From Ruditapes philippinarum (lineage: Eukaryota): a DNA stretch of 64,000 nucleotides. Position 1 is the first letter of the stretch. Each line of letters starts with the position of its first letter. The stretch is from the NCBI RefSeq assembly GCF_026571515.1, contig NW_026856433.1:1-64000 (forward strand), given 5' to 3'. Below the pieces are notes generated by a model that saw only the letters and a list, made by a program, of their open reading frames with translations, was not told the DNA's origin and ran no database searches. A program made the translations under genes and the position numbers. This document shows, piece after piece, positions 6,892-61,576 of the stretch.

Positions 6892-6930
<39 letters not shown>

Positions 6931-9321: not shown

Positions 9322-9744
9322 ACCTTTTTTCTTCATATTATTTTTTCCTATAAAATGTATCTTTTTGATAACTTTAAAATGTTATTATTTTATATATATT
9401 TTCATTTTTTTTAAATTTTTTCAAATCAATCTTTTTAAAATTGGGAATAAACAAAGTCCTTTTTCATTTGGGGCCCTCTGTTACATTGTAAATACTTTTC
9501 TGAAAAAAAAACTTGATTATTTTTTTCCCAGGGAAATCCTCCCCAGTGACAAGAAAATACTTTTTTTGGGAAACAGAAGGAAACCATTCGTGAATTTTTA
9601 TGGTTTTATATTACACTAAAAATTTTACTTCCCCCAAAAATTGCATCCCTTCCCTTTCTGGCTGTTGTTGGTTTCCTGTCTATTTTTTTGGGCCAAGAAA
9701 AACACTATTTTTTCCAACGGGCTTTTTAATAAGTTTTTTCACAG

Positions 9745-10878
9745 AACAGAAAGGGCGACCAGATACAGAAAAAGCCCTATGATTTCTTATGGATCAGTGC
9801 ATAAAAACCAACCGAATAATCTTCGAGACGATCAAGATATTCCAGAAGATTACAGTTATATCAACTCGAAAGTTCCCAAAACTTTCCCAATAAAACAAAA
9901 CTCCCCTTTTAATCAAACATAAATCAGAATCAATCGTGTTTTTACAAAGGTTCTTTTGATTCCGATGATAGTGATATTGTTTCCAAAAGTTTGCAAAGGG
10001 GTTTTTTAAGGTGAAAGCCCACCCCAAAAAAAACCCAGTTTGGGGAAACCAAAATAAAATGACGAAAATTTTTAAAAAACACAAAGGGGGTAAATCGGGA
10101 AAAACCACTAACCCCATTTTTAAAGATTCGAGGGAGGGCCGTTACCAAAAAGCAGAAAGGATAAAACACCCCACAAAAGTGAATTTGGCCTCTACTTTAA
10201 ACCTTAAAACGAAAAAAGGAATCAGGGGGGATATTGAGGGCGTTTGCCGGGAAATCCCCCTATACCCCAAAACGGACTTGGGCCATTTTTGAAAAAAGGC
10301 AAAGCCCCAAAAAATCGCAAACCTAAAGGGTTCCCCGCCCCGGGGGCTTATGATAGGGGGGATGCGTTCATACTTCGACGAGTTAAAACCCAGGGGTTTT
10401 GCCGTTCACGCAGAGGAATGAAGGGGCTTGCTATTAGCCGGAACCGGAGAAAAAAATAAAGATGAAAATAACAACTTCAAGTTAGAGCAAAAAAATAAAA
10501 ACTGAAATACATCGAGGCATTCTTCGCAAACATAGGCACAAATCTTTCCCCAAAGAAACCGGGGCAAAGTCAAAGCGGAAACGAAGACAACCTTCAGAAC
10601 TACAGCTCAGACGGGTCCGCGAAATGACAGATGTTTATAGCGCTTCACCATCGGTTCAAGCAATATATCCCCCACACCAGTCACACAAGTCTGCCCCCTG
10701 GAACAGCGCTCGTTCAAGGCCGAAAACATCAACCTTGCTGAAGTGGTCATTGCATGCGTATGGGGTTGAGTCTATCCCAAAACTTCCAAAACATTTAAAG
10801 TCACCAATGAGGAGTGGAACGGAATCCGTCACACTTGAGGATCGTGAAATAAATGGAAAGAACTGTTCCAATGCGTAA
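9745..10878 (+). other. Probable long terminal coding exon corrupted by homopolymer-type sequence errors (possibly the cytoplasmic tail of claudin paralog 2)
   Basis: Acceptor TTTTTTCACAG at 9744. Protein-like fragments appear in shifting frames (SPMISYGSVHKNQPNNLRDDQDIPEDYSYINS; DSDDSDIVS; DENNNFKLEQ), and the frame is open 10486-10878 where the sequence is clean. Confidence 0.4.
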
Positions 10879-11479
10879 AAATACTTAACTTTATACGTGA
10901 AACAAATTTGATATACTAGTATATTAGACGATATTTAAATTGGTGCTTGCCGTTCTGTTTACGTAGGAAAAATTATATTTACTAACCACAATGTACACAC
11001 TTTTCGCATGCATAATAATTATATCATTTTAATTTTTTTTTAATAATAAAGTTTTCGTGACAATAAACGCTATTTCTATTACATAAGATGTAAAAAAAAC
11101 ATGTAAAAATGCTGCTACTGCTGTTTTGATTTTATTTTGGGTTAAGTTCTAGTTTACAAAGCACCTGTGCTTCATTCACATCAATGATAGTCACCTAGTT
11201 TATATAAATGTAGGAGTGCTTTCTTTTTCAAAAGGACTATGTGTTAACTTATATAAAACTTTGTACAAAACTATGTACAATCAAAGCACAGAAGGCGCTG
11301 AATTTGTTTGGGTCTCAGAATGTAAGAAAGGTGAAGGTTGTGAGATTATAAACCAATTTGTTTGGTAAGTGTCACCAAATTCTGTTTCCAGTGTTATAAC
11401 TATAGTAAATTGGCTATAAGACTAATTGCAACACTGACATTCAATTCAATGTTAAAACAAAAATAAAAACAAAAAAAAA

Positions 11480-11700
11480 CATGAGTTGCCTAAACTGGGA
11501 TTTTGAACTCCGGACCTCTTGCTTCTAAAGCGAGCGTGTAAATCACTCAACTAGGGCGAGTTATGAGATAATAGCCTAAAGAATACCATATTATTCTTAA
11601 TTAGAGTTTGTAACCCTTATTAATTTCGATATATTTTTTGTTTCACGGTGAAACCATTGTTTAAACTGAAGTAAAATAAACATTTGGAGGCTGAATATAT
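11480..11700 (-). repeat. Dispersed repeat with tRNA-like segment; diverged second copy at ~18930-19130
   Basis: Shared blocks CTGGGATTT(T)GAACTCC, GTAA.CC.TA.TAATTT.GA and TTGTTTAAA..TGAAGTAAA. Confidence 0.5.
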
Positions 11701-12937
11701 TGCATGTATATCTATAAAGAATAATACAATATTAGAAATCTTCGACCAATCGGGAACTATTTTTTCGTTACGAAAATTAATGAGCCTGTCATTTGACAAT
11801 CTTCGCGCAATGATCTCCCCCTAATTTTTCGGCGTTAATGTACATATGAAGCGAAATAACCGTTTCGAGGAGTTTGGACTACTTTCGGCATTTGCAAATA
11901 AGAACATCTTGGTCTGACGACCCAAACAAATAAAAACTAGCCCGTTTCCTCTACTTTGCTCAATACGGAGAGCATACAAGGGTTGCTGGTCCAAGCCTCG
12001 GGCGGGAAGTAATTTCTCTGTGACAACTGATCTCGGAAACTTGTTTAAAATGTTGTAGACTGTGTTGATATGGACGGTCATGGACAATGCATGCTGTTGT
12101 CCATGTTTTATTTGTCCTTAATAAAGTACAGCTAACATTACGTAATGTGATGATAAGATAATATCGGTCTCAGCAGTCTTTTTCGAATATTTAACACCGG
12201 TTTGGAGTTTTGGTGTTTTGGTGCGTAAGAAGAATTGACCACGAAGGCCGATATCATTTCGAACGAAGATCACTTAAGCATTTTCTGCCGATTTTCTTAT
12301 AACGCTGTTCAAATTTCGCACTCTACTGTCGCTAAGATATAGAAATTATTAAACAAAAGAAATAATAAAAATTTAACAATTTTTTAACAATTTAAAATTA
12401 CGTGGTAGACTGGATTATTATTCTGCCAGCCCATCTGTACTTTGATTTGCTATACCTCGTACCTGGCGCAATGTAGAAACAGTGTCCCAGTAGTTGTTAG
12501 ATGACATCGCACTAGCACTTGAAAAGCCTGGCACAATCAATGTTTCCTTTATACGAAATACAGGTAACGAAATACGGAATTACCAACTAAGACTTCTACT
12601 TAAAGGCAAGAATAGCGCTAATGAACCATTTCCCGTGCATTAAAACCTGCGGGCTCGGGCTTTAAATGCGTCCTCGTGTTTCTATACTCTTTATAAGAGA
12701 TTTTCAGCTTGTACGGATAACGATAGCCGGAGACGAACAACGGATAAAATATTCGGGGGTTATCTCAAAATATTTACTATTCTAATGAATAACCATACAG
12801 TAAGTTCTATAACCTTAGATAAGTTCAAATACATGCAATGCTTGGACGAACATTACTTTTATGAATATATCCACACACTAGAAATTGTTATGTAACGTTT
12901 AATCTCTGCTATACCGTGTTATTCGTTTAGGACCCTA

Positions 12938-13145
12938 TTTACGGCGTATTTGATCTGACGTGTATGGGGTCTTTATATGGTCATACGTGGGATAAATTTT
13001 TCGACAAGTTCAACGCATTCTTCTGGAAATGCAAAATCAGTGCTGATCTCATAAAACATGTGATACTGCTGGGCATCGTTTTGGTGACCAAGAAACCTAC
13101 TTCGTATATATCTTATAGTATCATGACGATGTCTCCAATATAACA
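12938..13145 (-). pseudogene. Degenerate PIF/Harbinger (DDE_Tnp_4-type) transposase fragment
   Basis: The minus strand reads HRHDTIRYIRSRFLGHQNDAQQYHMFYEISTDFAFPEECVELV, then after a frameshift KIYPTYDHIKTPYTSDQIRRK*. This matches the Harbinger GxxND...(G)DxxYP...TPY motif order. Confidence 0.6.
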
Positions 13146-14109
13146 GCATTCATAGGCCTATTGATTTCATGAGAAAATCCGGAAACGCAACCTTATTTCC
13201 ATAGCATAATCACAATCGGCACTGATATGTTGAACAATGACGACAACATCATAAACTTCTGGTATGTTCGAAACCACATAAGCACAAGAAGAACTCTGTT
13301 TCTTGCAGACAGTTTATGAAGTACGAAGAGTTTCTAACAGATTTAGAAATGTCTTTCCCTGGTCACTTGGAAGAACTGGTACATTGTACCGATGTGAAGA
13401 GATAAAAGAAAACACATTTCTACCACTATAAATGTCTTTAACGATTCAAAAAAAGTCTATAACTTATATTTAGTGTCGGGTTAGGCGTTGGTCGAATGAA
13501 TTATAAATCATGTAAATAAGTTCAAACTTCAACTTCAAAGTAATTGGTGATGTCGGGGGATCCTTTAATAAGTCGGTAAAATTTAACTTATTGTTCTGAT
13601 TGATTCATTGTTCATTGTTACCTAAAACAATTATTTTTTCAACATTTATTTTGATTCGAAATAAAAAATGTGTTGAAATATGTTAATCCATACTTCATAA
13701 AGTACTATTATCTTTTTGCACGGGGTTCACGTGAGCAATGTAACATAAGTTTTTGTCGATAATTTATATCAAAAGTAAGGGGGAGAAAAAACATCAACAG
13801 ACATAACAAAACATTTTATCTCTAATTATCACACTATAATTCATTTTCTGCTTCTCTGATCGGTTTACACTTTAATTTTTGTTATCTATTTATGCTATGG
13901 CGCAATCTTCAGAATGCCGGGGTCGACACGAAAAAAACACGAGGCCAGTCAAGTATAGCATGTCAGTCACACCAGAATACCCAGCAAACAAAAGACGTTG
14001 TACCAACGTTGTACTGACGTTAGACCCTGACGTTGGGTAAACGTTGGCAGAAGGTTGGATTTGAAAGTTTTTTAGACGTCAGAAACCGACGTCTATACAA
14101 CGTCATAAA

Positions 14110-14290
14110 ATGACCATTATCCAACCTTTTCTGACCATAATCCAACCTTATCTGACCATAATCCAACATTTTCTGACTATTATTTGGACATAATCCAACC
14201 TTTTTCTGACCATAATCCAACCTTTTCTGACCATTATCTGACCATATGCCAACCTTATCTGACCAAATTTTCTGACCATGATTTAACCTC
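14110..14290. repeat. ~21-bp minisatellite (CTGACCATAATCCAACCTTTT) in the EnSpm-like subterminal region
   Basis: Visible tandem units; explains the repetitive ORF 14020-14292. Confidence 0.85.
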
Positions 14291-15584
14291 ATTCCAAACT
14301 TTTAGAATATGATTTTTTTTCATTTTGAAGCTCTTTAATAGGGTTAATAAATAAGCATTCTTATAATTTTAGCAATTTATTTTATACTCGGAATCACAAG
14401 TACATAACAAGAAATGTGGTACTATAACAAATGCAAGATTTACATAATATTTTTTGAAACTATTAAGCTTGACGGTATGTACTTTAATAACGCTTCATGT
14501 ATTAATTAAGCATGTTTTAGAAATAAGATAAACAAAATCCTTCTTGAATATTAACACTGACATTTTATATAGCAAACATCCATGCATGTGTTTTTTCTTA
14601 TATCACCACTGAACTGATCACTCTGAGTTTGGGATTTTTCAATCATCTATCCAACTCACTGATTGTATATTTGTCTTTGTATTTTATAACTGAATCTAGA
14701 TCTGAATGTTAAATGGAACAATATTCTGAATATTTTGTTTTAACTATAAATAGCAATGTTCATGTATCTTCATTAGTATTCTAGCTTCTTTCGTCCTCCT
14801 ACACTTTGTCGATCTGGGGCATACTTTAAGCGTATCATTACCGTCTCCAACCTGAGATCTCATCACACTTTCTGAAATTAAAAAAAAATAAAATAATCAG
14901 TTACAAGTGCAAGAAATAAATCACTTATACATATTATAATTAAACGAAATTCTAACAAACTACTTAAAAAGATACTTATTACTTTTAATTTAGTTTAAAC
15001 CATGTAGTTTCGTGTACCTACTGTATATATCTATTAATTTTGATAAAAATGGCTTCGTGAATTTCATTATAAAATCAAGGGTAATTAGATCACTGTATTT
15101 TCTATAATATTTTGAAATATACCTGTCTCAAAATCTTGGTAGGTTTTCATTTTTCTTTTCCTCTAAATATTTTCATCTTCCTCCTGAACATTTGACACAA
15201 GTTGAATTATCATAATCTTCACAATCTGAAAGACGAAATATAATCGTTTTAGAATTAACCATGTGGTGGAAGGATGTTTGTCTAATACAATAGGCAAAAT
15301 CCAATTACTATTAATCTTAGTTAACTCATAAGCGCATGAAAAACTGATATATAACAAATACCAAAATGAAATTAATTCTACTCCCGCAAAAATTTATATT
15401 GTTATTTTTTATATTCAATGTACTTTGTACAAATGCTCATACAACATCAAAGAAATTCACATGTTACTGTCATTTTTATAGATATCATCTCTGCCCAGCA
15501 TGATCTGGTCTGCTAAGTGTATATAGGACAGATTGGCTTAGTGTAAAAACGTTTTATGATACGAGCATACAACTTGTTGATAAG

Positions 15585-16816
15585 GGTGTTTGGACTTTAC
15601 ACCTCCTGGATGTTTCACCCCTGGACGTTTCACCCTCAAAACCCTGGTCTTTTCACCTCCACTTTTTAAATTTGATAAATATATGAAGTAAATACCATTA
15701 TGGGTTATAATTGATTAGTCTGAAATGTTTTATATTATTATAGATTTTCAATATTTTGTATTATATACACACAGTATTATATAAAAGAAAATTCAATGTT
15801 AGTACATTTTATTTTATTTACTTACATGATTTTTAATATTTTAACTTTTTTTTACAAGAGAGTATTTTTCTATTAAAGTATTTTATTTGAAATAATTGGT
15901 AATAAATTCATTCTAGCTTGATTTTTTTAAAGCATTTTCAGCAAGTTTTTGTAATAGATTTATCTTAATGAATAAAAAAGACAAAAAATGAAAATGACAA
16001 AATGATAGTTGAATATTTAGAATAAAATATTTAGAATAAAATATGATACCATTTTTATTTTATACTTATTATTTTTTTATAAAATAGGAAATAAAATTAT
16101 ATGATGAAAATAACAGTGTTTATTTTAATGTTATGTTATTGTAAAGTGCATACATTGTAGATATTGTAGTTGACTCTGAATAAAATTTAGTAAATCTGAT
16201 AATTTTGTTTTATCTGTTTTTCATACATTGATACATATATTAGGTAAATTTTATTTGAACAAGAATGTCATTTTTTAAATAAAATTTCTTAATTATAAAT
16301 TTCAAAAAACAAATATTCTCTCAATGTCTATCATGCAAATTTATATGATATTGAGTTATCTCAATTATCACTCAATATAATCCAATTAAGGGTAACAACT
16401 AAGGTATGTCAAACAAGTTTACTGATATTTATCCATACAGTATACAATAATATTTATAAAAAAAGTAGCCAAGTCAAGTCAAGTCAAATTTCCTTTATTA
16501 CACAAATTTCATGTTAACATGAATAAATGTGGTTAGTAATAAATGCAATGTTAGTAGAGGCTCTTTAAACATATGTACAATGTATATATAATTTCAGTGG
16601 TAAAATAATTCGTAAAAAGAGTATTTGTTCATATCATTTGCTGAACTGCAGTACGTTCAATTAACAATTATGTATCAAAACCACAAATTGTTAAATTTCT
16701 TAGTAAATATGTTACCACAAAAAAAATGTCTAGGAGGTGTAAAGACCAAAGATGAAACGTCCAGGAGGTGTAAAGACCAAAGGTGAAAAGTCCAGGAGGT
16801 GTAAAGTCCTGAAATC
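15585..16816. mobile_element. 1.2-kb non-autonomous DNA transposon with 8-bp TSD (MULE/Merlin/hAT class uncertain), nested in the EnSpm-like element
   Basis: TSD TTGATAAG at 15577-15584 and 16817-16824. Inverted subterminal repeats GGACTTTACACCTCCTGGA / TCCAGGAGGTGTAAAGTCC. Confidence 0.8.
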
Positions 16817-19513
16817 TTGATAAGCAGGCTAATTAACAAACTATTACTTTTATTGATTTATAACTATGATAATGTGTTTTCTGATTGATAAAATGTTGTT
16901 TGATTACATTAGTAAAAAGATAGCTAGTCAAATACAATGTGCTTTCAGATATATCTTACCAAAGTCGTATCATTTACATGTATCAAATGCCATGAATCAT
17001 TATCATAATATAAGAAACACATGGTATGCTAACAGTATGGGTAAAGTACTTCAATTAACAACGAGTAGTTTAACAACTACACAGATATCAAAATCAAACT
17101 GCATCTGATACATGTGTAAATGATTGGCCCCTCATATAAGGGAAATTCACGTTGATAAGTAATGAGGAAATTTTATTTACCAGCATTTGAATAATGAGAG
17201 TCTTACGTACTGGTTTTAACGTTTTATTGAGTTCAATTGCTAGGATATTTCCTACCATTGATTGTGCATTTATTTGGGATGGCGATATAGTGTGGGAAAA
17301 ATGATCCGATAATACAGACTGTTCTATAGCAAATGATGAAGTGTTCTTACGTGGAAACAAAAATATTTATCTCGCGAAATCACGTTACATTAAGTTTTAC
17401 CAGTCAAACATTTCAATGATCAAATAACCATCGAATCCATGCAAACATGCGGTAAATTAGCATTGAAAAACAATATATAATGTTTGCCTACCTTTTTCTT
17501 TTGTTTGGAATATACAACTTTGTCTGTCAACCCGTCGTTTTTTTGTCCGCCAATACAATTGAATTTCAAATCCGATAAGTCGCAAATTCGAATTTACTAA
17601 ATTATTTACCACTATAAAATGAAGCCCTCAAAAATGATAACAGCTTCATTGTAAATTATATAAACATTTCTTAAACTAATTCGAGGAGATAAGATATTAT
17701 TTAAACGAAAATAGAGCAAATATATTTCATACTGATCTGCGACTATCCGTTTACAGAGCGCCACCTATCGAATATCGTACGTTAGCCACCCACGTGATAC
17801 TGTTGTTTTGATGGAGAAAATAAATATATAATGTTCCCTTTCTAAACTTAAACTTAAAATTCTCGCTGTTTATGCTTTAATTTATATATATATTGGTTTC
17901 ATAAATTAAATTCACCTTTTGTCAGATTACCGACCAAAACCCGACGTCGAGTCGACGTCAAAATGAAACGTCTGCTAGACGTCGGGGATTCAACGTCGAT
18001 TTGACGTTGTATGAAGGTCACCGACGTCGCGACCAAAATTCAACGTTGATCCAACGTTGGGTCAACGTCGGGTGTTTGCTGGGTACATGATAATCAAACA
18101 GGAACATCAGCTGATTTTAGGGGAAACATTGCTAATGGACTTTCAACGTCGCAAGAAGAACCCCCCACACAATGAGTCGGAGAAGAAGAAAGAGGCCGTT
18201 TGCTGACATGATTAGGGAAAGTCAATTATTATACAACGATTTTATTAAAAACAAAGTTCCAAGATTGCTCCGCCAGCTTGGTGTCGAGAAATCTTCTGAT
18301 GAATCAAATTAAATATTCAGAAAATACTTATGAAGGGCTTTTTGTAGTAGAAATAACTGCAGTCATTCAATTTGGCTTGGCCTTTTGTTATCTTTTTTTC
18401 TTTAAAAAGAAATCATTTTGAAACGCTCCCTTAAAAAAATACCTCACGTAAACTTTTAATACACCAAATTTGCGTCAATGGGTTTTTTATTTTCCCCACC
18501 ATTATCCCTAAAAATTCCAACCTGGTAATTTTTCCCCTAGGGGGGTAATATTATAGGCCCCCGGGGAAAATTTAAAAAAAGGTTCCTAGTTTTCTTTTTA
18601 CAATAAAAAATGTTTAAAAACATATTACTGTTGATTCGGGGGGACTGGCAAGCTTTTTTGGGGGTTTTTTCTGAAACCCTTGCAATCCTAAAAAAACCGG
18701 GACTGGGAAAACTGTATGGGGTAAAATTTTCCTGTTAAGGTTTTTTTAAAGTTTTAATTCATCTTGCAAAACACCAAAAAGTTTTTTTCTACGGGGGTTT
18801 TTTCCATAACTACAGTAGAGTTGCAAACAAAAAAAAATTTATTTCATTTTTTTTTGCAGCCAAAACTTTATCCTTGATATATGGGTACTTCCTTAACAGA
18901 GACACTTAAAAAAGAATTTAAAAAAAATTGCATCGACTGGGATTTGAACTCCAGATCTCTCACACACCAGACGAGCGCATTACCCCTGCACCACGGAGAA
19001 GTTATATAAACAATGCCTGAATAAAATCTAGTGATTCTAAATTTAGAACTTCCATTGTAATCCTTACTAATTTTGAGGTATTTTGTTCAGGATAAACCTG
19101 TTGTTTAAAATTGAAGTAAATAATTTAGCGAAAATTTTCTCGCCGAAACAGTCATCTACATGTATATATTCCACTACTCGGCAGTCAGATTTATTTGTGT
19201 AGTATTCGGTAATCGACATCGCTAAAAATTTCATTGATTAAAATCAAATTCATCCGCGTAATTTGTGATTGTGCATTTATTGACAATTCTATAAGACAAC
19301 GCTACTTTTAAACTTTGAATGCGTTGTAATTTGTTGGATACTTGTAACAAAATAAAAATATTTCTTTCTTTTAAATCGCTAGTTTTAAGCTGTTTTGAGA
19401 ACTACTTGTTGTTAGGTTTGTCGTGAAATTCTGTGTCAGAGATTGAATGTCAGTTTGTATTTACTGACCTTCGGTCAGAAAATACAAAAAACAACACAAT
19501 GTTTCCCTTGAAC

Positions 19514-19552
19514 CAATCGCAACTACTCGGCCCTTTCCGCCAGTCTTCGGAT
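19514..19552. mobile_element. Left arm of the MITE family also found at 27560-27661
   Basis: CAATCGCAACTACTCGGCCCTTTCCG matches that element's TIR. Confidence 0.6.
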
Positions 19553-20933
19553 AAGGACCTCGAACACAATAGTATGAATACACAGAACGGATACGGTATT
19601 CCGGTGTAACCTACGCTTAGAAACTAAACATGTAAACAAATAGTAATTTAATGCTGGGAGTTGTTGACAAGTTTATTTCCAATATATGTAGTTAAAGTCC
19701 ACATAAAATAAGTGAATTTATAGGTACAAAAGCAAACAATACATTATTTATATATTTACTAATATGGCTGTAGAAACCGAAAGTACAAAAAAACAACCTG
19801 TTGACATTTAGTAGGATTTGTTTCAAATTGAACATCAGTGGGCATATTTAAATTACAAATTGTTGTCAGACATATTTTCAAGCAGAAGAGTACCGGAACA
19901 AACATTAGATGTCAAATATATACATTCGTTTTACATTATCTCTGTTTCTGTTTACATCTGTAAACCACGTGGTAGAACTACTTTCAATCCGTATTGTTCC
20001 GAGGTTATTATAGTAATAGCCGAGGCAGTTCCAAATGCCCTTGAACTGAACTAACACCCGAGACGGTTCTTTCAGTTCTCCGGTTGCTAATACATTTGTA
20101 TACATTATTACCATGTTTTACATGTATTTTCATAATTGTGAATATTTGGTTGGCGGCGCTAGGCAGTAATGGCAAAGGATAGGGGGTAGATGAGGGGGAG
20201 AGAGAGAACAGGGTGCTACACGAAGAATGGGGAATGGGGAAGGCTTATAAGACTTTCACGCAATTCTCCTGGTAAATGGGACTTCTTAATTATTCTATTA
20301 TAAAAGTGTAAAAGAAATCACAAAGTCACACATGTGAAGATGATTGCACTAAAAACTTTATAAATAAGACCGGGGTTATTTAAACATAATTCTTTTTAAA
20401 AACTCTGATTAAGCGTATGTAATAAACGAAATGTTTTGTGTCTAGTATTTCAAGAAAGTTTAAAAAAAAAACATATACATGACGAGGCTTATTTCACACT
20501 GTGCACTTTTCATCATTAATATCATTCGATCAGCTGAATTTGTAAGACAATATAACTGGTTTCTGTTTTTATTTTCTCCGTAGTTACAAATTGCATTCAT
20601 TTGATATCAGGTTTTAATTCATTTGATACCACAAAATACTCACAAAACAGTAATATCAGATTGCACTATTTGAAGGTTAAATAGCAAATTATGACATACG
20701 TGGCCATCTTATAAAAGTGCAGAAATTAAACTTCAAAAATATTTACACGAAATAATTTGATTATTGAACCACATCTGAATATTGTATTTCGGAATCGATA
20801 TATTGGTATTTATAAACGAGATTTACATGTACAAATTTATTGATTTTATTTTGTTGATATTCAATACAAATCGGCACTACATAAGCTTATCGTATATGGA
20901 CTATTTTCCGGATCTTTTTTTACGAATTCAGTC

Positions 20934-23799
20934 ATGTCGAAACAAGACGACGAGAACGCGACGGTGAAACTGGAAGAACAAAAGCGGAAATATATCAGTG
21001 TTTTAAATGGTTGCTTTGGATATGTTGTATATCGGTTGGTTTACTTGCGTGTTGGGTAGGAAAAGTACAGTACTATGCTGTCGGAAATACTAACGATGGT
21101 AGTGACAATATTCATAGAGACAGTAGATATAGGAGTTTTAAAGCATTTGACCAAGATCGTGATGGTTTTATTTCGGAGCCGGAGTTTGAACAAATCCATC
21201 GTCGCTTGATTAACACTCAACCAGAGGAGAGGTCTCAAATTGTAAGAAAAAGTTTCGTTATGAAGTTATTAATCAAGTTATGTTAAATAAGTAGGTAAAA
21301 AAATTACTACCTATTCTATTTATTTTATTTGGGAATATCTTGACTCATTTTGTTATTGAGAAATATTAGTATCAGAGAGGAATAAGTATAATATGATTAA
21401 CAAGTAAAGGGAAGTAACAGAATCGCCAGTTTGAAATATTACTGAAAGAGTTATCTTTTCTTGATACCAGCGATGAAAGGGCTCTGGCAAAAAAAAAGAA
21501 AAAAAGGAAGAAATCTTTTCGTTTATTTTCCACAAAAAAGACCCTTTAAAGATGGATTTAGGAAAAAAAATCTAAAATAGTAGGAACATTTTATCATTCA
21601 ATTTCAATGCATCCAGATTTGGCTACCTATCTGTTTAGATAATTAGTTGATTTAAAAATACATTTAAAAAAGTAGCTATATTTATAATCATTCTTTTATG
21701 ATTTCTAAGGCATCAAGAGTTGAAATGTTTTGTCTTTTGTAAAATAACAACAAAATAAATTTTCCATATATATGCATGTCTTTTAAAGGTGTTAGATGAA
21801 TTAAAACGTATTGAAGAGGAACAAGGAAAACTCCACGACCTTATAAATGATCTACAGTTAAAACTTACAGGTTTGTTAGATCTTAGAAAAAATTTAGTTA
21901 TAGTTAATAAAAAGTTTTATTATATTATATAATATTTATACCTCTTACTTGCGCAGCAATTCTTTTCATAACTAGTGCAAAATGATTTAATAATACATGC
22001 CGTCTTTTCCAGTCGCTTAAAATGCAGTTTGCTATATAAATAGTGATGACATTATGAAAGAACGACTCCAGTTCGACATTGACCGCAACATTTTGTCGTC
22101 GTGTTATTGGGGTGCCATGGCACAACAAACACCACAGCGGCAATACGGTGGCACCATGGCGAAGCATCAAGCGGCGCCAGAACGCCTAACTGTGTCGTTA
22201 TGGTGCCCTATTTTTGGCTACAAACAAATATATGATTTCAGACTCCGAGTTGGCTCAATGGGGACCCTGGAGCACGTGGAGCGACTGTTACATGAGTTGC
22301 ACTGGTAAACATGGTGGTCGTTTACAGAATCGTTCAAGGGAGACAAAATCAAAGTCGGTCGTACAGGGTCATCAAAAAGAGACTGAGGAACGCCCATGCA
22401 ATGCTGTACAATTCGCAGGTTGGTTATTATATTACACATGTAATTGTTTATGGAATATTATTACTAACAGTATAAACACTTCCCATTCATTTAATCATTT
22501 TTTAAATATATTTTTTCCATTAGTATTAAATATATATTCAGAATCTGAATATACGGACACTGCTAACAAAATGAAGCCGTCGCAGAAGTTACATTCCTAG
22601 TAGAAACTATTTTAGCAAGTTCTTGTAGTATATACATAACTCGCTTTTAAACACAAGTGAGTTAATGACCAAAATACGGGATTAAAGTGCAAATTTTAAA
22701 ACTTAATTTAATCACTTTAAAGACTTATGTCTAGATATATGTGATGGTGACATATTAAAAACTAGGTCGTGATCTCAACATGGCTCGAACTCACGATCCC
22801 TTGGTTGAAAGGATAATACTTTAGACGTGTGCCACCTCTCCCCTCTCTTTTAACAGCCGCTTAAATTTAGAAAAATTTAAAAATATTTTTTAATCTTATA
22901 GGTTGCATTAAAAGTTATGGAACAGATGATAATTTTGGTGTAAACTACGACTTCGCCGATCAAATGGCAGTTGCCACGTGCACCGCCCTTGCAGTAGACG
23001 GCTATATCCACGCTGTTAGACGGAGGTGCTCTTCGCTGTCGGTCTCGTGCGCGGAGACGTGTAAGCAAATAGGGTAAACACTGAAACTACTGAATTATAT
23101 GTTAAAGGAAATCTACATCATAATATATAACTCAATAATGTATAAAAACATGGGTCACAGGGACAATGTCATGATTCCCTAAATGTAAATAACGATTGGT
23201 CAATACTTTCTAAATTATGACCCAAACACAATTGTTAAAATCATTTTGATTTGAAAGCTGCTTACTAGTATTTATGAAATTTTGTTGGCGATAAAATGAG
23301 GTTTATATTATACATTTTTACTGCAATACTGATTTCTATTTGACTTGTACGCAGCTGTTAAATCTGTAGCGCCTCGTCCAATATAGGTTTTGCAGCTTCA
23401 ATGAAAACGAGGTTAGATGGAGTACAATAAGTATATGATACAGATCGGACATGAAAACGTAGAAGTAATTCTAAAGCAGTAACCATATTATTACCACACT
23501 GATTCATTTCTTTGGATTTACAGGCACCAATTAGTTCTAGTATATTTATTTTTATATATTTTCACCTTTAACATGCAGTTAACATTTTTATGCAGCATTA
23601 CTGTGATATTTGTTTTTTATGCATGCATACTTGTATTTGTTTCAGTGGAACATGTTTCAATTCTCTACACATTTATAGAGGGTCACAAGTTTTGCTGAGA
23701 GACGTTCACGGTTCTAAGGGATTATATGCTTACAAGTACAACGCTTGTGGTGGTGGATGTGGTCCAAACTTTTGTTGTTGTCGGTCTTTAAAACCTTAA
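20934..23799 (+). pseudogene. Gene A copy 1: TM-EF-hand-coiled coil-TSP1-Cys-rich head protein, frameshifted in exon 1
   Basis: Exons 20934-21241, 21789-21870, 22242-22418, 22902-23073, 23646-23799 have intact GT-AG sites. A 13-bp deletion (TTAATACTGAAAA) relative to copy 2 after codon 15 gives a stop after ~41 codons. Exons 2-5 remain open. Confidence 0.75.
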
Positions 23800-23963: not shown

Positions 23964-24135
23964 NNNNNNNNNNNNNNNNNNNNNNNNNNNNNNNNNNNNN
24001 NNNNNNNNNNNNNNNNNNNNNNNNNNNNNNNNNNNNNNNNNNNNNNNNNNNNNNNNNNNNNNNNNNNNNNNNNNNNNNNNNNNNNNNNNNNNNNNNNNNN
24101 NNNNNNNNNNNNNNNNNNNNNNNNNNNNNNNNNNN
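23964..24135. other. Assembly gap (172 N)
   Basis: Run of N. Confidence 1.
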
Positions 24136-24627
24136 GAAAAAGTAATCGCTGTTGAAAATTGAAACACGTGTCTGTTAATCAAAATAATTGTAAATTGTAC
24201 TACGATAATAACAAAGAGACATACCTTTTATCGTAAAAGTGGCACAGGCCAACCAAACCTTAACGTAAAGAAAGGCAAGATTTACAAATAAAAAGTAACA
24301 TGTGACAATACTGAGGAACGATAATTAATGGCGTTTTTTTATTATCAATACATGATCAAGCGTGGGTATTTATGTCTTAAGGCCTTAACTGACGGTAGGA
24401 TTTAGAGGTAAAACACCAATTAAAACTTGTATAATTCCAAAAGACAATAATGTTCAGCGTATTCATGTCTGATAAAAATATCAACTTCCCTTGAACACTT
24501 TAACACTTCTGATTAAAGTGATGAGCATAATGTTACCAGAACATAGTCAGACCAACCTGCAAAATGGAAGCTAATTAAGTGAATTAAAGAAATTCTGCAG
24601 GTTAAGGGTTTACCAATAAAGCAACAC

Positions 24628-26212
24628 CTTTTATTGTTTTCTCTGATTCATCTAGGCGCTTTTGTGTGACAGCTCTTTCAGCTTCAGTATGTTCTTGCAA
24701 CTCTTGGGCTTCCACAAGCATGTCTTCCAGCTGAATTATGCGCATGCTCAGTGACTCCACTGTCTGATTCATGTCCGTCTGTAACACCGTTGTGTAATAA
24801 AAATATGAAAGATCATACTAGTGCATTAATGTTTTCATTGATGACAAAATGATATAAAATGATGTAAAAATGATACACTGTAATCGGAATAGTAAACCAT
24901 AGTGTGACATTTTTTTGTGAGAATAAAAACCAAACTTGAATGATGATTTAACATATTTAACCCACAGGTGCTTGTAACAAACTTTACCTGTGATTTAACC
25001 TGTATCACGCCCGAGAACTTTGCAATTTTGAATTTGGAACAAACGGTAGTACTATAATGTACTATAAAATAAACATTTTACATGAATGAGCAAAGATCGC
25101 CTACTAGTTGTGATTATGTGAAGGACGCTGACCTTTTTAAACTACATGTAACGATATAAACTAATAATCATTATAATATGGATGTAATATCAAGTAGGAA
25201 ATCATATACAAATGCTGTTTAAATATGGGCCGATTGACCTTTACCATGATACACAGGACACTAGATAGATAGATACGTATTTCACAAACACACCTGTGGG
25301 GGGGGGGGGCGTCCGTGGCCGAGTGGTTAAGATCGTTGACTTCAAACCACTTGCCCCTCACCGCTGTGGCTTCGAATCCCGACAGGGACTTTGGATTCTT
25401 TCATGTGATGAAGCTATCCAGCTAGCTTACGGAACGTCGGTGGTTCTACTCAGGTGCCCGTTCGTGCCTGAAATAATGCATGGAAGGGCACCTGAGGCCT
25501 TCCTCCACCAGTAAAGCTGGAACGTCGCGATATGACCTATACTGTGTCGATGTGACGTAGTGACGTACCCCCCCCCCCCCCCCCCCCCCCAAAAAAAAGC
25601 AAAAACACAAACACACCATATCTTGTTTTAGATGTGATTTATATTCCTCCAGTTCTCCCATTCGTAACTCTACACTCATTTGTCGTCTGCTGAGCCGCCA
25701 TTTTTCCCGCTTCAACGTGTCTGTGAGGTCTCGTGCAGTTTCGAGGTTCTCTTTCAGTTTTTCGTATAAACTTCCTTCTCCTTTTGACGCTTCTCCATTC
25801 TGCAGTAAACTTCATATTTAGATACAATGATAAAATTCTTATTCAATTCATTCTTGACATCATACTCTGGTTTAGCTACGTCAACGCTGTACATAGCACA
25901 TTTTTCTTTAGAGCGTTTTGTTTATTATATGTATGTACATGTATAACCTATCCAATCTCATTAAAATGTAGCTTTTTAATATAAAATAATTGTAAGCTAT
26001 CAGGCGCTTACACTTTAAAAACTAACAGCAGCAGCACTATTACGCCAAGTCATAGTGAAAAGCACGAAAAATACGTGCACAAATGTTATAAATTTTGACA
26101 AAAAAAGAAAAAGCGTGTCTTTCATCTATATGTTTAAGACAAACGGACAAATTATCTAAGCTGTCAACAAGTTCCTCGGCGGTGTCGACCAAAGCTATCG
26201 ACTTCTTGTGAC
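24628..26212 (-). pseudogene. Gene B copy 1: coiled-coil protein, 5'-truncated
   Basis: Exon 2 (25799-25617) and exon 3 (24778-24628) are near-identical to copy 2. The exon 1 remnant (~26212-26117) has lost its start to a MITE and its donor site to a deletion. Exon 4 is absent or lies in the gap. Confidence 0.75.
25295..25605 (+). mobile_element. Full-length tRNA-derived SINE (Meta-domain-like, bivalve type) with 12-bp TSD
   Basis: A box TGGCCGAGTGG, B-box-like GCTTCGAATCCC, central GAAGCTATCCAGCTAGCTTACGGAACGTCGGTGG domain. TSD CACAAACACACC (25283-25294 and 25606-25617). Absent at the paralogous site near 40045. Confidence 0.85.
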
Positions 26213-26224
26213 TAAGGACTGAAA

Positions 26225-26435
26225 AAACCAACGTAATACGTTTGCGACCAGCATGGATCCAGACCAGCCTGTGCAGTCTGATCAGGATCCATGCTGTTCG
26301 CTTACAAACCCTATAACAAGTAGAGAAACTGATAGCGAACAGCATGGATCCTGATCAGACTGCGCGGAGGCGCAGGCTGGTCTGGATCCATGCTGGTCGC
26401 AAACCCATTATGTTGGTTTTGTCGTGACGCGGCTC
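26225..26435. mobile_element. Sola-type palindromic MITE, left end truncated
   Basis: Same family as 6685-6958; ends CGCGGCTC|ATAT. Confidence 0.85.
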
Positions 26436-27559
26436 ATATTATTATCCTGATACAAGAGTGTTTCATCTGAAATAAGATTGTTGAATTGTTATATCATACA
26501 TGTATATAAAATGATTTGTTTAATAAAAGGCCCTAGTAATATTGTACATGCTAAAGGCAAAACAAAGTGTAATTTGTTTGTTGTTTATTTTTTAATGGTT
26601 ATAAGTGAATTATTTCACCTTGGTTACATGTATATTAGTTTGCGTTATTATTTCTGACTGGTAATCAGATTGTTAATGCCTTTAAAAGGTTGGCCTAACT
26701 GAGATTAGACTTGTGGGGGGATGTTCATATGGTAGTTCATAAACTTCTTCAATAGGAGCATGATGACCAAGACGTGTCATATAATTGTGTTATAATTGGG
26801 AAGTTGGTGAACAATAAGATAATTGAATGATTTTAATTACTTAGGCATGACTTATACAAAATAATGTTAGTATATATGTTTCAAGCTACTCTCCCACACA
26901 AAACGGGTCTAAAACATAATTCATTCTTCAAATTAGACATCATTATAACGTTTATATATTTGGTAAGATATGCGTATAAATATTTTTTCATCGAAAAGTA
27001 TAGTAGTTCAGTATTATCACATTTATACTTAATAAGAATCTATACAAGAGGGATATCTTTATTCTGTGTAACAAACAACATTGAATATCAAATTTGATCA
27101 ACTTTTCAACCATATTTATTATTCTTATTAGGCCAACGCTTTTATTTTATTCAAATTACGGGTTTTTATATAAAGTTACCAGTATTAACATTCTATTTTA
27201 TTTTTCCAACAGCAGTCATTATCTATACTTTTAATCCTAACGAATCAACATTCCTAACCCCCCCCCCCCCACTTTGTCATTATTATAATACACGTTTAAT
27301 ATAAATAATCTAACAATACCCCCTTGTCGTATTCTTATCCCCTATATGTTATAAAACTTAAAGTTTAAAGTTTCAAGGAAGTTTAAAGAAATGCATATAC
27401 ATGGTAAGGGTTATTTTACACGTTTTCATCATTTATACCATTAAATCTGCTGTGTTCGTCAGACAATATACATTAAATTGCGTAGTTACAAATTTCATTC
27501 ATTTGATACCACTTTTCACGCATGTGATAACCAGATTTCATTCATAACATACATTTGAC

Positions 27560-27661
27560 CAATCGTAACTTCTCGGCCTTTTCCGTCAAACTTCGGAATC
27601 AACTATATTGCGCATTCGGAACTGCCTCGGACTGACGGAAAGGGCCGAGTAGTTGCGATTG
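27560..27661. mobile_element. Short palindromic MITE immediately upstream of the gene A2 ATG
   Basis: CAATCGTAACTTCTCGGCCTTTTCCGTCA ... TGACGGAAAGGGCCGAGTAGTTGCGATTG inverted repeats. Confidence 0.75.
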
Positions 27662-27678
27662 CTATATTGCGATCAATC

Positions 27679-30600
27679 ATGTCGAAACAGGAAGACGAGA
27701 ACATGACAGCGAAACTGGAAGAATTAATACTGAAAACAAAAGCGGAAATATATCAGTGTTTTAAATGGTTGCTTTGGATATGTTGTATATCGGTTGGTTT
27801 ACTTGCGTGTTGGGTAGGAAAAGTACAGTACTATGCAGTCGTAAATACTAACGATGGTAGTGACAATATTCATAAGGACAGTAGATATAAGAGTTTTAAA
27901 GCATTTGACCAAGATCGTGATGGTTTTATTTCGGAGCCGGAGTTTGAACAAATCCATAGTCGCTTGATTAACACTCAACCAAAGGTGCTTAAAAACAAAC
28001 TTTTTAAAGTTTTATATGGGCTATATACTATAATAAGATATCTTAATATACATATATAGACGTTTATGTAAAATATTTGATTATGTGACTAGCGCCTGTG
28101 CACTCAACCAGAGGAGAGGTTTCAAATTGTAAGGAAAACAAGTTTTTTTTTGAAGTTATTAATTAAGTTTTGTTAAATTAGCCGGTGAAAAAAAGATACT
28201 ATCTTTTCTAGTTATTCTATTTGTGAATATCTTGACGATGAGAATATTGGTATCCGAGAGGAATACAAGGTTAGCTTTTAAAAAAGCTAGTAGCGACTCG
28301 CTTCGTAATTTCTTTCCAGGGGCGTGTTTAAATGTAAAAATGACAGTTCTGTTAGCTGAAAAGACTTCAGCGAACATCAAAATAAAAGTGACATATAAAG
28401 TTAAGGAAGCCAGTTCTCTCAGTTTAACAAAGAGGAATATGAGTATATATGAAGATGCATGTAAACAGATAGAATGAAGTCCCTATGTCTATGCACATTT
28501 ACTATATGGCCTGTTGACCTTGACCAGAAAAAAATAGATAAGTAGAATTCATAAAAATGTCTCTTTATACGAAGTTAAGTTGTAATATGTTATTTAGTAT
28601 TGGAATAAGTGACAGATACAAGTCAAGTCAAGTAAATTTTATTTACAAGTCGGATACATCAACAATAAACATAAGCTCTGATGAGCTTTTTACACCGACT
28701 TCTATAATAGTTCTAAAGTAAACACAAGTTGTCAATCAATTCAGCCAGAAAAGCCGGGATCCTATTAAAAAAATAGGATCCCGGAAATTGACCAGTTTAA
28801 GAATATAGTTTTCAGAAAAGCCGGGATCATATTAAAAAAATAAAGAGATCCCAGGAATTGGACAGTTCAAGAATATTGTTTTCAGAAAAAGCTGGGATCG
28901 TATTAAAACATATAGGGATCCCGGGATTTGACCAATTCAAGAATATAGTCTTTGATTTTTCCAATTAATTAGGCATATAATTATAAGTATTGTGATTTTG
29001 TTAATAAATAGCTCTAAATATATCTATATCCTAAGTTAAATCAATTTAACTTTCATTACATACAATAAAAAAAAACTTAACGTTTAATGGCCTTTCATTA
29101 CGACTATTATCAACACATATATAGTTTATTAGTATTTTCTTCTATTATCTTATACGATCCCGGATCCCGGGCGTCCCGGATCCCGGCCAGTAAATACATA
29201 CACTATATACCGGAAGGGATGAAATGACCGGAAAAAAAGGAAAAAGAAAAAAATGCACAGAACCAGATGTCGTTCATGTTAATTAACCAAACGAAAACTT
29301 ACTACAAAGTAAACAGGACTGGTGAAATCGCTAAATCAAAAGTCAATGTAAATATGATTTATTGAAAAGAATCCATGAACACAAACATTTTAATCACCAT
29401 TATATCTTTGCGCTCAAAACAATACTTGCTGCTTTTTAAAAATGGCGTGAAAATTGAAGGTTTTTTGACGCTATATAAGATCAAATTTGATTGGCTAAAT
29501 AATTTTGGATCCTAGCCCTGATAGATAAATTTTGTAGAAAGCTGGAAGCAAAGCTTCGATTAAATTTTTGGATGGTTTCGGAGTTTTAGGTTGTTTCTCA
29601 GTAAAATCCTAACGTAATACCGGCTCGCCGTGGCGAGCCGGCACAAGTAAAGGGAAGTAACAGAATCGCCAGTTTGAAATATTACCGAAAGAGTTATCTT
29701 TACTTGATACCAGTGAATGCTCGGTCAATAGGGCTCTGTCAAAAAAAGAAAAAAAAGGAAGAAATCTTTTCGTTTATTTTTCACAAAAAAAACCCTTTAA
29801 AGATGGATTTAGGGAAAAAATCTAAAATAGTAACAGTAGAAACATTTTATCATTCAATTTCAATGCATCCATATTTGGCTACCTATCTGTTTAGATAACT
29901 GGTTGATTTAAATACATTTAAATAAAGTAGCTATATTAAGAATCATTATTTCTAAAGTATTCTTTTTATGATTTCTAAGGCATCAAGAGTTGAAATGTTT
30001 TGTCTTTTGTAAAATAACAACAAAATAAATTTTCCATATACATATGCATGTCTTTTAAAGGTGTCAGATGAATTAAAACGTATTGAAGAGGAACAAGGGA
30101 AACTCCACGCCCTTATAAATGATCTACAGTTAAAACTGACAGGTTTGTGAGATCTTAGAAAACTTAGTTATAGTTAATAAACAGTTTTATTATATTATAT
30201 AATATTTTATACCTTTTCCTTGCGCAGCATTTTTTTTCATAACTAGTGCAAAATGATTTAATAATACATGCCGTCTTTTCCAGTCGCTTAAAATGCAGTT
30301 TGCTATATAAATAGTGATGACATTATGAAAGAACGACTCCAGTTCGACATTGACCGCAACATTTTGTCGTCGTGTTATTGGGGTGCCATGGCACAACAAA
30401 CGCCACAGCGGCAATACGGTGGCACCATGGCGAAGCATCAAGCGGCGCCAGAACGCCTAACTGTGTCGTTATGGTGCCCTATTTTTGGCTACAAACAAAT
30501 ATATGATTTCAGACTCCGAGTTGGCTCAATGGGGACCCTGGAGCACGTGGAGCGACTGTTATATGAATTGCACTGGTAAACACGGTGGTCGTTTACAGAA

Positions 30601-32097
30601 TCGTTCAAGGGAGACAAATTCAAAGTCGGTCGTACAGGGTCATCAAAAAGAGACTGAGGAACGCCCATGCAATGCTGTACAATTCGCAGGTTGGTTATAA
30701 TATTACACATGTAATTGTTTATGGAATATTATCACTAACAGTATAAACACTGCCCATTCATTTAATCATTTTTTAAATATTTTTTTTCCATTAGTATTAA
30801 ATATTTATGACCGGTCAGAATCTGAATAAACGGACACTGCTAACAAAATGAAGCCGTCGCAGAAGTTACATTCCCAGTAAAAACTATTTTAGCAAGTAGT
30901 ACATAATTCGCTTTTCAACACAAGTGAGTTAATGACCAAAATACGGGATTAAAGTGCAAATTTTATAACTTAATTTAATCACTTTTAAAACTGATGTCTA
31001 GATATCTGTGATGGTGACATATTAAAAAGTAGGTCGTGATCTCAACGTGGCTCGAACTCACGATCCTAGCTTGGTTGAAAGATTAATACTTTAAACGTGT
31101 GCCACCCTCCCCTCTCTGTTTACAGCCGCTTCGAATTAGGAGAATTTAAAAGTATTTTGGATTTAGAGTACACCGTTTTTTTTTTAAATCTCATAGGTTG
31201 CATTAAAAGTTATGGAACAGATGATAATTTTGGTGTTAACTACGATTTCGCCGATCAAATGGCAGTTTCCACGTGCACGGCGCTTTCAGATGCCGGCTAT
31301 ATCTACGCTGTTAGACGGAGGTGCTCTTCGCTGTCGGTCTCGTGCGAGGAGACGTGTAAGCAAATAGGGTAAATACTGAAACTACTGAAATATATGTTAA
31401 AGGAAATCTTCACTCAGACATGTATAAAAACATGGATCACAGGGACACAGTCATTGGTCAATACTGTCTCATTTATGGCCCAAGCAAAATTGTTTAACTC
31501 ATTTTGATTCGTCAATTACCCTTGAAAGCTGCTTACTAGTATTTATGAAATTTTGTTGGCGATAAAATGAGGTTTATATTATACATTTTTTACTGCAATA
31601 CTGATTTCTATTTGACGTGTACGCAGCTGTTAAATCTGTAGCGCCTATATAGGTTTTGCAGCTTCACATCGACTTGAAAATGAAAACGAGGTTAGATGGA
31701 GTACAATAAGTATATGATACAGGTCGAACATGAAAACGTAGAAGTAATTCTAAAGCAGTAACCATATTATTACCACACTGATTCATTTCTTCGGATTTAC
31801 AGAAACCAATTAGTTCCAGTATATTCATTTTTATATATTTTCACCTTTAACATGCGGTTAACATTTTTATGCAGCTATGTGATATATATTATATGTGATA
31901 AATATTTGTTTTTTATGCATGCATACATGTATTTTTTCAGTGGAACATGTATCAATTCTCTACACATTTATAGAGGGTCACAAGTTTTGCTGAGAGATGT
32001 TGACGGTTCCAAGGGATTGTATGTCTACAAGTACAACAGTTGTGCCGGTGAATTTTGTGGTCCAAACTTTTGCTGTTGTCGGTCTTCAAAACCTTAA
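27679..32097 (+). CDS. Gene A copy 2: type II membrane protein with EF-hand, coiled coil, thrombospondin type-1 repeat and uncharacterised Cys-rich C-terminal domain (297-309 aa)
   Basis: Exons 27679-27984, [28093-28128], 30061-30142, 30513-30689, 31197-31368, 31941-32097 join in frame. Signal-anchor WLLWICCISVGLLACWVG; EF loop DQDRDGFISEPE; heptads VSDELKRIEEEQGKLHALINDLQLKLT; WGPWSTWSDC...RSR...C; C-terminal ...AVRRRC...C...C...C.NSLHIY...YKYNSC...CGPNFCCC. Exon 1 splicing is inferred. Confidence 0.75.
28266..29642. mobile_element. ~1.4-kb insertion in the first long intron of A2 with a Helitron-like 3' end
   Basis: Absent from the A1 intron. Ends in a perfect 10-bp GC hairpin CCGGCTCGCC-GT-GGCGAGCCGG (29620-29641) followed by CACAAG. 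Possible TC-type 5' end TCTATTATCTTATA at 29141. Confidence 0.6.
28745..28950. repeat. Three ~67-71-bp tandem units, each with an internal GGGATC...GATCCC inverted repeat
   Basis: GC(C/T)GGGATC anchors at 28753, 28820, 28891. Confidence 0.8.
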
Positions 32098-38490: not shown

Positions 38491-40974
38491 TTATACATAA
38501 GCTATTTCCGTGGTCTCTGTAAACACTGATGAACGCGAGGATTTCGTGCTATTCTGATCCATCGTATTTTCATGACATGCTCTTCCGTTCTCAGTCACTT
38601 CATTTTCTGTTTCAGTTTGTCCGTTCACTTTAGAGTCAGAACTTAAACTTTTAGTAGTTGCCTCTTGTTGTTGTTCATTGTCTTCTTTCTCGCGGATAAG
38701 TTCTTTAAGGCTTTTATTTTCAAGCATGAGAATTTCGATCCTGTCGGTAAGTTCACTATGTTGCCTTTTCAAAACGGAGTCCTTCCTTTCAAGTTTAAGC
38801 AGTCGGATTTCCTCGGTCATCTTCGCCTGTTTGTCTTCCAAATCTGTTCATGAAAAAGGATAATTGAAAACTTATAATCTATCAAATAACTATCTGCTAC
38901 TTAAAAAATAACAAGAAACATGACAATGCCATGAAACCAGGTTTTCAAAAATAGCCACTTCAAGCAGAGACCGCACACTCAGAATGTTTGAGCCAAATCC
39001 ATCAATTAGCACGGAATGTAAAAATGACACGTGCCCAATTCCCCAAATATTTAATATGGTGTAAGAATAAGAAATCATTATAAAAGTCACAGAGAAAATG
39101 ATAATATAATGGTATGAGTAAACTGATAAGCCAAGTCTGTTTCCAAATTATACTTATCAACCACAAACCATTTTACAATTTTACAGTGAATTTAACCAAG
39201 AGCAATCTCAAGCAAGGTCTTCACATAAACCTGCTATATACCAAGTTTGATAACGTCTCTTTCCTATCTTCAGTAATTGACTTTTTTGTATTTTTAATAA
39301 TAGTGACATTAACCTTGACCCTAGGATGTCAAAATACAGTCTCAAAGGAGGTCTCCACGCAAGCTTGCTTTATCCCTAATTTAATAAAAACATGTCATTA
39401 TTGTCTGGGAACCATTTTCAGACAGTTGATGGCGGGGGTCAACCTTGGCCCAATCCCAACTACATATTTAAGAAACATTCAAACTTTTTGACTCGGGGTA
39501 TACTCCAAAATACAACAACACGCATGTCTGGTGTGTAACACTTTCACGATTCTGATTAAAGTGATGGAACCTGCAAAATGGAAGTTTATCAAGTGAATTA
39601 AAGAAATTCTGCAGGTTAAGGGTTAAGCAATAAAGCAACACCTTTTATTGTTTTCTCTGATTCATCTAGGCGCTTTTGTGTGACAGCTCTTTCAGCTTCA
39701 GTATGTTCCTGCAACTCTTGGGCTTCGACAAGCATGTATTCCAGTTGAATTATGCGCATGCTCAGTGACTCCACTGTCTGATTCATGTCCGTCTGTAACA
39801 CCGTTCAAGTAATGATAAAATTATGAAAGAACATATACTACAGAATGACGCTACCAATGGTAAATAGTTTACTTCAAAATTCACTACAATCATTATAACA
39901 TGGATGTTATCTCAAAACAAGTAGGAAATCATTTTTCAATAAGACAATAAGTATATGCCTATTGACCTTTAGACGTACACTTTACAATATATGATGAAAT
40001 ATTTAACAACCAAGAAATTCTCAAGAAAATAAATATGTATTTCAGCAACACACCATATCTTGCTTTAGATGTGACTTATAATCCTCCAGTTCTCCCATTC
40101 GTAACTCTACACTCATTTGTCGTCTGCTGAGCCGCCATTTTTCCCGCTTCAACGTGTCAGTGAGGTCTCGTGCAGTTTCGAGGTTCTCTTTCAGTTTTTC
40201 ATATAAACTTCCTTCTCCTTTTGACGCTTCTCCATTCTGCAGTAAACTTCATATTTAGATACAAAATTCTTATTTAATTCATTCTTGACATAATAATTTG
40301 GTTTAGCAACGTCATTACAAAAAAGTGACGCTGTATTTTCTTTAGAACGTTTTGTTTCTCAACAGGAACGTACATGTATCCATCTGATCTGAATAAGATG
40401 TAGCTTAAATTTAAAAAAACATATCAGACGCTAAAATTTTGATGACAAACGCAGCAGTACCACTAATAGCACCCCAGGGCAAAGTGAAACAATTAAAAAA
40501 AGCACGAAAAATACGTGCGCACACTTATGAACAAAATTAGTTGTATCATAAAAATTTGGACAAAGTGTGATCCCTCGGAAGCATTAATCACAATAAAAAT
40601 TAAATGAATATTGCAGAATCGGTCTAAGTGAGTCTATATACATGAGGGCTTGGAAAGAAAGATACACGAGGGATAATGAAAAAGTGCAACATCCCTCACG
40701 ACCCCAAGCACCGGCTTGAGTGGTACCCAATTTTCAACACTTACATGAAAAAGTGCTGGAATCGATCCCGAAGGACCAGAAAAATATATCAACACTGAAG
40801 TGAAGTACGGGGAAAATTAAAAAATATTTTTACCTGAACATGTCTTTCATCTATATGTTTAAGACAAACGGACAAATTATCTAAGCTGTCCACAAGTTCC
40901 TCGGCCGTGTCGACCAAAGCTATCGACTTCTTGTGGCTGAAAACTGGGTTGATATCCAAGGTCCTTCTTGCCAT
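38491..40974 (-). CDS. Gene B copy 2: uncharacterised coiled-coil protein (275 aa)
   Basis: Exons 40974-40834, 40236-40054, 39792-39642, 38843-38491 join in frame (phases 0,0,1; 828 nt). Start context AAAATGG. E/K/L/R-rich heptads followed by an S/T/E-rich tail. Confidence 0.8.
40560..40740. repeat. Dispersed ~150-180-bp repeat; second copy at ~42690-42840
   Basis: Shared ATAATGAAAAAGTGCAACATCCCTCACG...GAGTGGTAC.CAATTTTCAA. Confidence 0.65.
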
Positions 40975-61450: not shown

Positions 61451-61576
61451 TAATGAATAAATATGGTATATCTGACATACTACATGGATGTAATATGAAA
61501 ATTATAAAATCATGTTTGTTTTCTTTGCTTTCATGAAAAACAATTGGATAATTTTATATTTCTTAAAAGCTGATAT

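Follow-up and report, generated by a model that had tools for sequence, protein, structure and literature searches.

Insertions into exons that disrupt or redirect splicing are familiar, and the case described here, an insert in an exon of Ruditapes philippinarum, the Manila clam, is of small consequence among them. The maize hAT elements Ds and Ds1 occur in exons and, like the clam element, are non-autonomous, are flanked by an 8-bp duplication, and have donor- and acceptor-like sites near their ends; most of the products modelled for exonic Ds1 insertions carry early stops (PMC5432752, in part). The P-MITEs of Anopheles gambiae (PMC1562414, in part) and BuT5 of Drosophila (PMC3698922, in part) share with the clam element a short, non-coding sequence, inverted ends, an 8-bp duplication, and many copies, although their inverted repeats are 27 to 31 bp long versus ∼10 bp in the clam element, whose superfamily is read from its ends and duplication alone. 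In one assembly of the Manila clam, MITEs account for 9.23% of the sequence (excerpts of PMC9803972).

Introners of the Aureococcus type are also similar in being MITE-like, with both splice-like sites near the ends and a remainder that keeps the frame and takes in the 8-bp duplication (PMC9860276, PMC12130899, and PMC11282704, each in part), but they form families whose many exonic copies are spliced as introns, whereas here a single exonic copy is present and splicing was not observed. The six rows listed from a 2025 survey table (Mercenaria, two Crassostrea, two Mytilus, and one fungus) have no introner families, and Ruditapes was not found in the 12 of 14 supplement files of that survey that were covered (PMC12130899, in part); a Ruditapes assembly is among the genomes listed in the available portion of a 2022 introner supplement. 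New introns of Daphnia pulex resemble the clam insert in being recent insertions in coding sequence that have short direct repeats and are probably polymorphic, although their repeats are ascribed to the repair of staggered breaks (sections of PMC4202315) and the clam insert comes from a high-copy family with inverted ends.

The window analyzed here is 64,000 nucleotides of contig NW_026856433.1 (assembly GCF_026571515.1) and contains two gene copies, A1 and A2, with an N gap (23964-24135) between them. The insert is in exon 1 of A2, and the features are as follows, with a slash marking a splice boundary.

20934..23799, + strand: gene A1, RefSeq XP_060591681.1 (LOC132746516), with an empty site, donor ATT/GTAAGA at 21242, and a 13-nt deletion early in exon 1
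24963..24992, no strand assigned: 30-bp relative of the MITE that lacks the interior of the element and is flanked by a separate perfect 8-bp duplication, ATTTAACC
27679..27984, + strand: exon 1 of gene A2, RefSeq XP_060591676.1 (LOC132746511, Ruditapes philippinarum), coding for a hydrophobic segment and an EF-hand and resembling the selenoprotein N N terminus
27972..27979, + strand: 8-bp target-site duplication CACTCAAC, left copy
27980..28100, no strand assigned: MITE, 121 bp, from depth, loose ends, X9 record 20, inverted repeats, and fold
27985..27990, + strand: in-frame donor-like AAG/GTGCTT within the left inverted repeat, from which the RefSeq model joins exon 2
28057..28059, + strand: in-frame stop on read-through, giving a 126-aa product
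28090..28092, + strand: TAG, proposed as acceptor and lying on the inner margin of the right inverted repeat, with no use observed
28101..28108, + strand: right copy of the 8-bp target-site duplication CACTCAAC
28109..28128, + strand: rest of ancestral exon 1, up to the old donor ATT/GTAAGG (28129)
30061-30142, 30513-30689, 31197-31368, and 31941-32097, + strand: A2 exons 2 to 5, coding for a short linker and the C-terminal domain, TSP1-like and cysteine-rich, of a family of bivalve proteins

Relative to A1, A2 has 119 nt of extra sequence at 27982-28100, exactly where a preliminary description had placed it, and is 129 nt longer overall near the end of exon 1. The 10-bp direct repeat also described there, CACTCAACCA, is present in A2 at both 27972-27981 and 28101-28110, and as a single copy in A1 (21214-21223), but the true duplication is shorter. 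Copies of the 8-bp CACTCAAC (27972-27979 and 28101-28108) bracket an element of 121 bp (27980-28100), and the repeat appears to span 10 bp because the element, with its first CA, and the host sequence both continue with CA after the 8-bp duplication. The terminal inverted repeats of this copy match at 8 of 10 positions, or at 9 of 10 when the left end is taken from the other copies, which start CACAGGTGCTTG, and the ends pair as an RNA hairpin that covers both the GT and the AG (z = −2.18; 3 of 200 shuffles were as stable). The relative at 24963-24992 has the same ends, and the duplication is of fixed length, 8 bp, at both elements (2/2) with both ends in the window. CANAGG...CCTNTG pairs with a perfect 8-bp duplication number 2 of 61 in the window versus none in any of 200 shuffled windows, a control whose motif was picked after the element had been seen; four further inverted-repeat-like ends in the window (at 4585, 11169, 42818, and 45913) have no convincing partner with a duplication. 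Short, non-coding, and high in copy number, with inverted ends and a duplication, the insert is likely a non-autonomous DNA transposon (MITE).

Four of 24 read runs were compared over 27400-28600: two of DNA (X5 and X9), one confirmed as RNA (X24), and one guessed to be RNA (X15). Depth in the insert bins is 2,583 to 9,886 in X5 and 6,611 to 18,775 in X9, versus 21 and 14, respectively, on exon 1, and the ratio of insert to exon 1 is 125 to 1,351 in the two DNA runs (at at least 90% identity; depth is not a copy count). Loose ends stack behind 28100 in all four runs (299 reads, and 6, 21, and 25 contigs), with a consensus agreement of only 0.40 to 0.54, so the flanks are unlike each other. A 126-letter contig (X9 record 20) has 13 unaligned letters before 27993, equivalent to a start at 27980, and ends at 28100; this contig, the starts of the other copies, and the loose ends at 28100 together define the element as 27980-28100. 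Across copies, one contig of 126 letters thus fits the full element, and one 30-bp derivative is present. An exact 24-nt search of metagenome contigs with the right end of the MITE gave no matches. No description of the 27980-28100 element was found in the literature, although it may be catalogued in Repbase or Dfam.

The P superfamily has the end motif 5'-CANRG (which no paper found in our literature search prints), and CACAG, at the right end of the MITE and at the left end of its other copies, fits it. The hAT end motif is not matched by the left end CACAG of the family, which differs in this from Ds and Ds1, as it does in that use of its splice-like sites was not observed. P elements have target-site duplications of 7 to 8 bp, and the clam element fits the description of a MITE (PMC3698922, in part); the hAT element Ds1 likewise gives an 8-bp duplication, which hence does not discriminate between the two (PMC5432752, in part). 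By its duplication length the element fits superfamily P or hAT, and by its CACAG end it fits P.

Three lines of comparison support the insertion as the derived state, not a loss from A1: the duplication, the repeat family, and an outgroup protein with an empty-site exon end. This protein (P0037, 108 aa) is 52% identical to A1 exon 1 and ends QPLDRSQFVR, versus QPEERSQIVR in A1, which matches an empty site whose reading continues into the old donor; the ortholog comparison proposed earlier for separating gain from loss comes down on the side of gain of the insert. The match to P0037 (54%) shows exon 1 to be old. A locus search based on P0037 gave a single match (L001) containing the EF-hand only, which was set aside. 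An Atlas search with exon 1 gave no usable match, and a protein search with the 126-aa read-through product identified P0037 alone among six candidates, with no allele-level ORFs. DNA upstream of exon 2 was considered as a decayed exon of the family (QELKCF versus QEPRCY) and rejected, as 41 to 485 of 500 shuffles scored as high.

A1 had been used as a clean ancestral comparator, which it is not, being itself frameshifted in the assembly: it is missing 13 nt after codon 15, and a stop follows 41 codons from the A1 ATG. The deletion is at 20976-20977 (versus A2 27722-27734), and the RefSeq model skirts the frameshift with an odd upstream start. It is either a private allele or an assembly error, since in X9 positions 27703, 27704, and 27708 carry A1-type letters at full depth and the 13-nt gap is absent. 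Introns 2 to 4 of A1 and A2 differ by 2 to 6% substitutions, which is near the heterozygosity of 3.7 to 4% given for R. philippinarum (PMC9803972, in part). A1 and A2 may be alleles, because A1 and A2 letters mix among individuals; in X9 one of two downstream contigs has just four differences from A2, and X5 is mostly A2-type at the 5' end. In the assembly the two may be haplotypes that scaffolding placed one after the other, or they may stem from a recent segmental duplication; the insertion itself is probably polymorphic. Depth at 28138-28219 is zero in X5 and X9 versus 45 in X15, although such holes can stem from the filter. Past the N gap there is a partial second copy of the neighboring minus-strand sequence (24554-26221 versus 39568-40946, 81 to 94% identity).

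A2 exon 1 is a 100% match to XP_060591676.1, and the five exons reproduce the 297-aa protein exactly. Its first junction, TQPK/VSDELK, runs from the insert's AAG/GT directly to exon 2, without a mini-exon; the A1 model, XP_060591681.1, uses the old donor (TQPEERSQI/VLDELK). The reading frames in the preliminary description are correct, including the in-frame TAG stop on read-through at 28057-28059 (126 codons), the AAG/GT at 27984/27985 and the TAG at 28090-28092, the 108-nt gap (27985-28092) that leaves an in-frame RLCTQPEERFQI, and the in-frame join 27984>30061. As in introners, both splice sites are in frame by sequence (GT at 27985, AG at 28091-28092), and a 108-nt splice would leave 121 + 8 − 108 = 21 nt. 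An additional in-frame option, 27984>28114 (129 nt), restores the length exactly, with one E-to-K change. Predicted U1 pairing is −5.3 kcal/mol at the new donor and −4.8 at the old, with the gene's other three donors at −6.2 to −8.3; the new and old donors match the consensus at 7/9 and 6/9 positions, respectively. The acceptor at 28092 has a pyrimidine fraction of 0.53, versus 0.41 to 0.76 at the gene's own acceptors (the exon-5 value is one base off). An earlier caveat that the signals are weak is right for both donor and acceptor, but the old donor ATT/GTAAGG scores no better and the acceptor is within the range of the gene; the splice-like sites look weak, yet not impossible.

X24 has no power here because its exon-1 depth is 0.6 to 2.1 and its letters are A1-type (27708, 27842, 27875, and 27876). 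X15 may hold DNA or unspliced precursor, although it is not whole-genome DNA, since its intron repeat bins are just 0.5 to 1.8 times exon depth, versus 300 to 3,960 times in X5 and X9. Exon 1 in X15 (depth 98) divides at 27981. Record 2 (27952-28059, 0 differences, depth 53) extends across the new donor, leaving 33 letters on one side of it and 75 on the other, and the remainder, at a depth of about 39 and departing at 27982, is likely the empty allele. Record 6 (28071-28294, depth 45) spans the old donor unspliced, and the near-identical contigs of records 7 and 8 carry on to 28600, a read-through reading that is limited in that contigs lose rare forms. None of the four joints listed falls at the proposed sites in the four runs (over 27400-28600, with exon 2 outside that stretch and one run informative; 24 of 2,633 read pieces and 24 of 382 loose-end rows are listed). 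The RNA junctions put forward earlier for checking, 27984>28093 and 27984>30061, are thus not among the joints listed for the four runs; the second is that of the RefSeq model.

It is reasonably probable that the MITE insertion disables this gene copy, because transcripts of the allele appear to read through to an early stop rather than splice the insert out, mostly leaving intron 1 unspliced. The caveat raised at the outset that this could be simply an inactivating insertion is the one that best fits the data, with its unspliced X15 contigs and in-frame stop. The element would have arrived by cut and paste through a P- or hAT-type transposase making an 8-nt staggered cut. With its duplication it lies among the final codons of exon 1, 20 nt upstream of the old donor, and introduces an in-frame stop; the hairpin of its paired ends would hide both splice-like sites, and the resulting allele would be polymorphic and non-functional. 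The whole event is probably an ordinary MITE insertion, probably polymorphic and inactivating, or at most a shift of donor. Such a shift, in which the left end of the MITE supplies a new in-frame donor joined straight to exon 2, is possible but doubtful. The element and the last old codons would be absorbed in intron 1, the intron number would be unchanged, and five residues would be lost (TQPEERFQI to TQPK); XP_060591676.1 has precisely this TQPK/VSDELK junction in an open 297-aa frame, the new donor is no worse than the old one, upstream of which it lies, and Ds and Ds1 ends supply donors likewise in maize (PMC5432752, in part). However, a gene predictor could choose the new donor merely for its open frame, and the 24 of 382 loose-end rows listed include none at 27984-27987. 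The shifted product and the genomic form share 27952-27987, so from the way contigs are built a break in X15 record 2 would be expected at 27987, but the contig is unbroken from 27952 to 28059.

The proposal that the insert is itself spliced as a new intron, as in introners, is improbable, whether of 108 nt (27985-28092, adding seven codons) or of 129 nt (27985-28113, restoring the length with E changed to K). Both options are in frame, the GT falls inside the left inverted repeat and the AG at its right-hand counterpart, and Aureococcus introners similarly bring both sites and add 12 nt (PMC9860276, in part), although the four runs (one informative) have no such joint, the X15 contigs, of guessed RNA, read through unspliced, and RefSeq has no mini-exon. 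The 28092 acceptor is also weak, though not impossibly so, the 129-nt option would depend on a GAG acceptor 2 nt past a CAG that is out of frame, and an exon of 36 or 15 nt with a weak donor would remain. The insertion of the preliminary description is derived, as duplication, repeat family, and P0037 indicate, and of transposon origin, one of the two sources it had named, but its splicing as an intron is not supported. Its Daphnia-type alternative of break repair finds no support either, the insert being a high-copy element with inverted ends. The inserts of a 2009 Daphnia study reportedly do not derive from a repeat family, unlike this one. A non-transposon origin, either as filler DNA from double-strand-break repair or with A2 ancestral and 129 bp lost from A1 between short repeats, is very improbable: short direct repeats go with new Daphnia introns (PMC4202315, in part), but the many copies of the element and the ends they have in common, its inverted repeats, the other element flanked by an 8-bp duplication, and the outgroup protein with an empty site all argue against it.

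It is a long shot that the MITE family is a latent Manila clam introner, whose CAG/GT donor and AG acceptor would leave exactly 21 nt at any forward exonic insertion and so preserve the frame, with this allele still segregating and partly spliced. If copies of the family are spliced out cleanly from many exonic positions, the family would be an introner within a group for which the five bivalve rows of the available survey table list none, and a polymorphic allele would be on hand for studying fixation. The MITE insertion also suggests a caution for intron-gain scans, in which reads from the empty allele would align as though across a perfect 129-nt GT-AG "intron", the one mismatch being at 27982.

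The RefSeq models look like a chimeric gene, in which a selenoprotein-N-like membrane anchor and EF-hand are joined to a TSP1 and cysteine-rich module. Exon 1 shares 37% identity over 90 aa with a Mactra selenoprotein N (P0126). The remaining 18 protein matches cover just 30 to 73% of the query, and the eight of these examined have a signal-peptide-like stretch at the start instead of an A2-type exon 1. No paper was found on such a selenoprotein-N-like/TSP1 chimera.

Other repeats are present in the window. A second high-copy inverted-repeat element, at 27562-27661 and 19514-19545, reaches a depth of 16,000 to 23,600 in the DNA runs; its copy at 27562-27661 is just upstream of the A2 start codon, where the A1 sequence is unrelated. 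A2 intron 1 includes ∼1.4 kb of repeat-rich DNA (28265-29643) that is absent from A1. ACAAG borders this DNA on either side, a GC hairpin lies toward its right end, and it contains a 67-bp tandem repeat; it is possibly a rolling-circle element. The stretches 9450-10500 and 18400-18900 are homopolymer-rich, like unpolished long-read sequence, and small indels of the assembly therefore need caution. Another foldback repeat of ∼220 to 250 bp is present in six copies, at 6670-6894, 26220-26450, 57631-57805, 58454-58631, 60213-60465, and 61565-61817.
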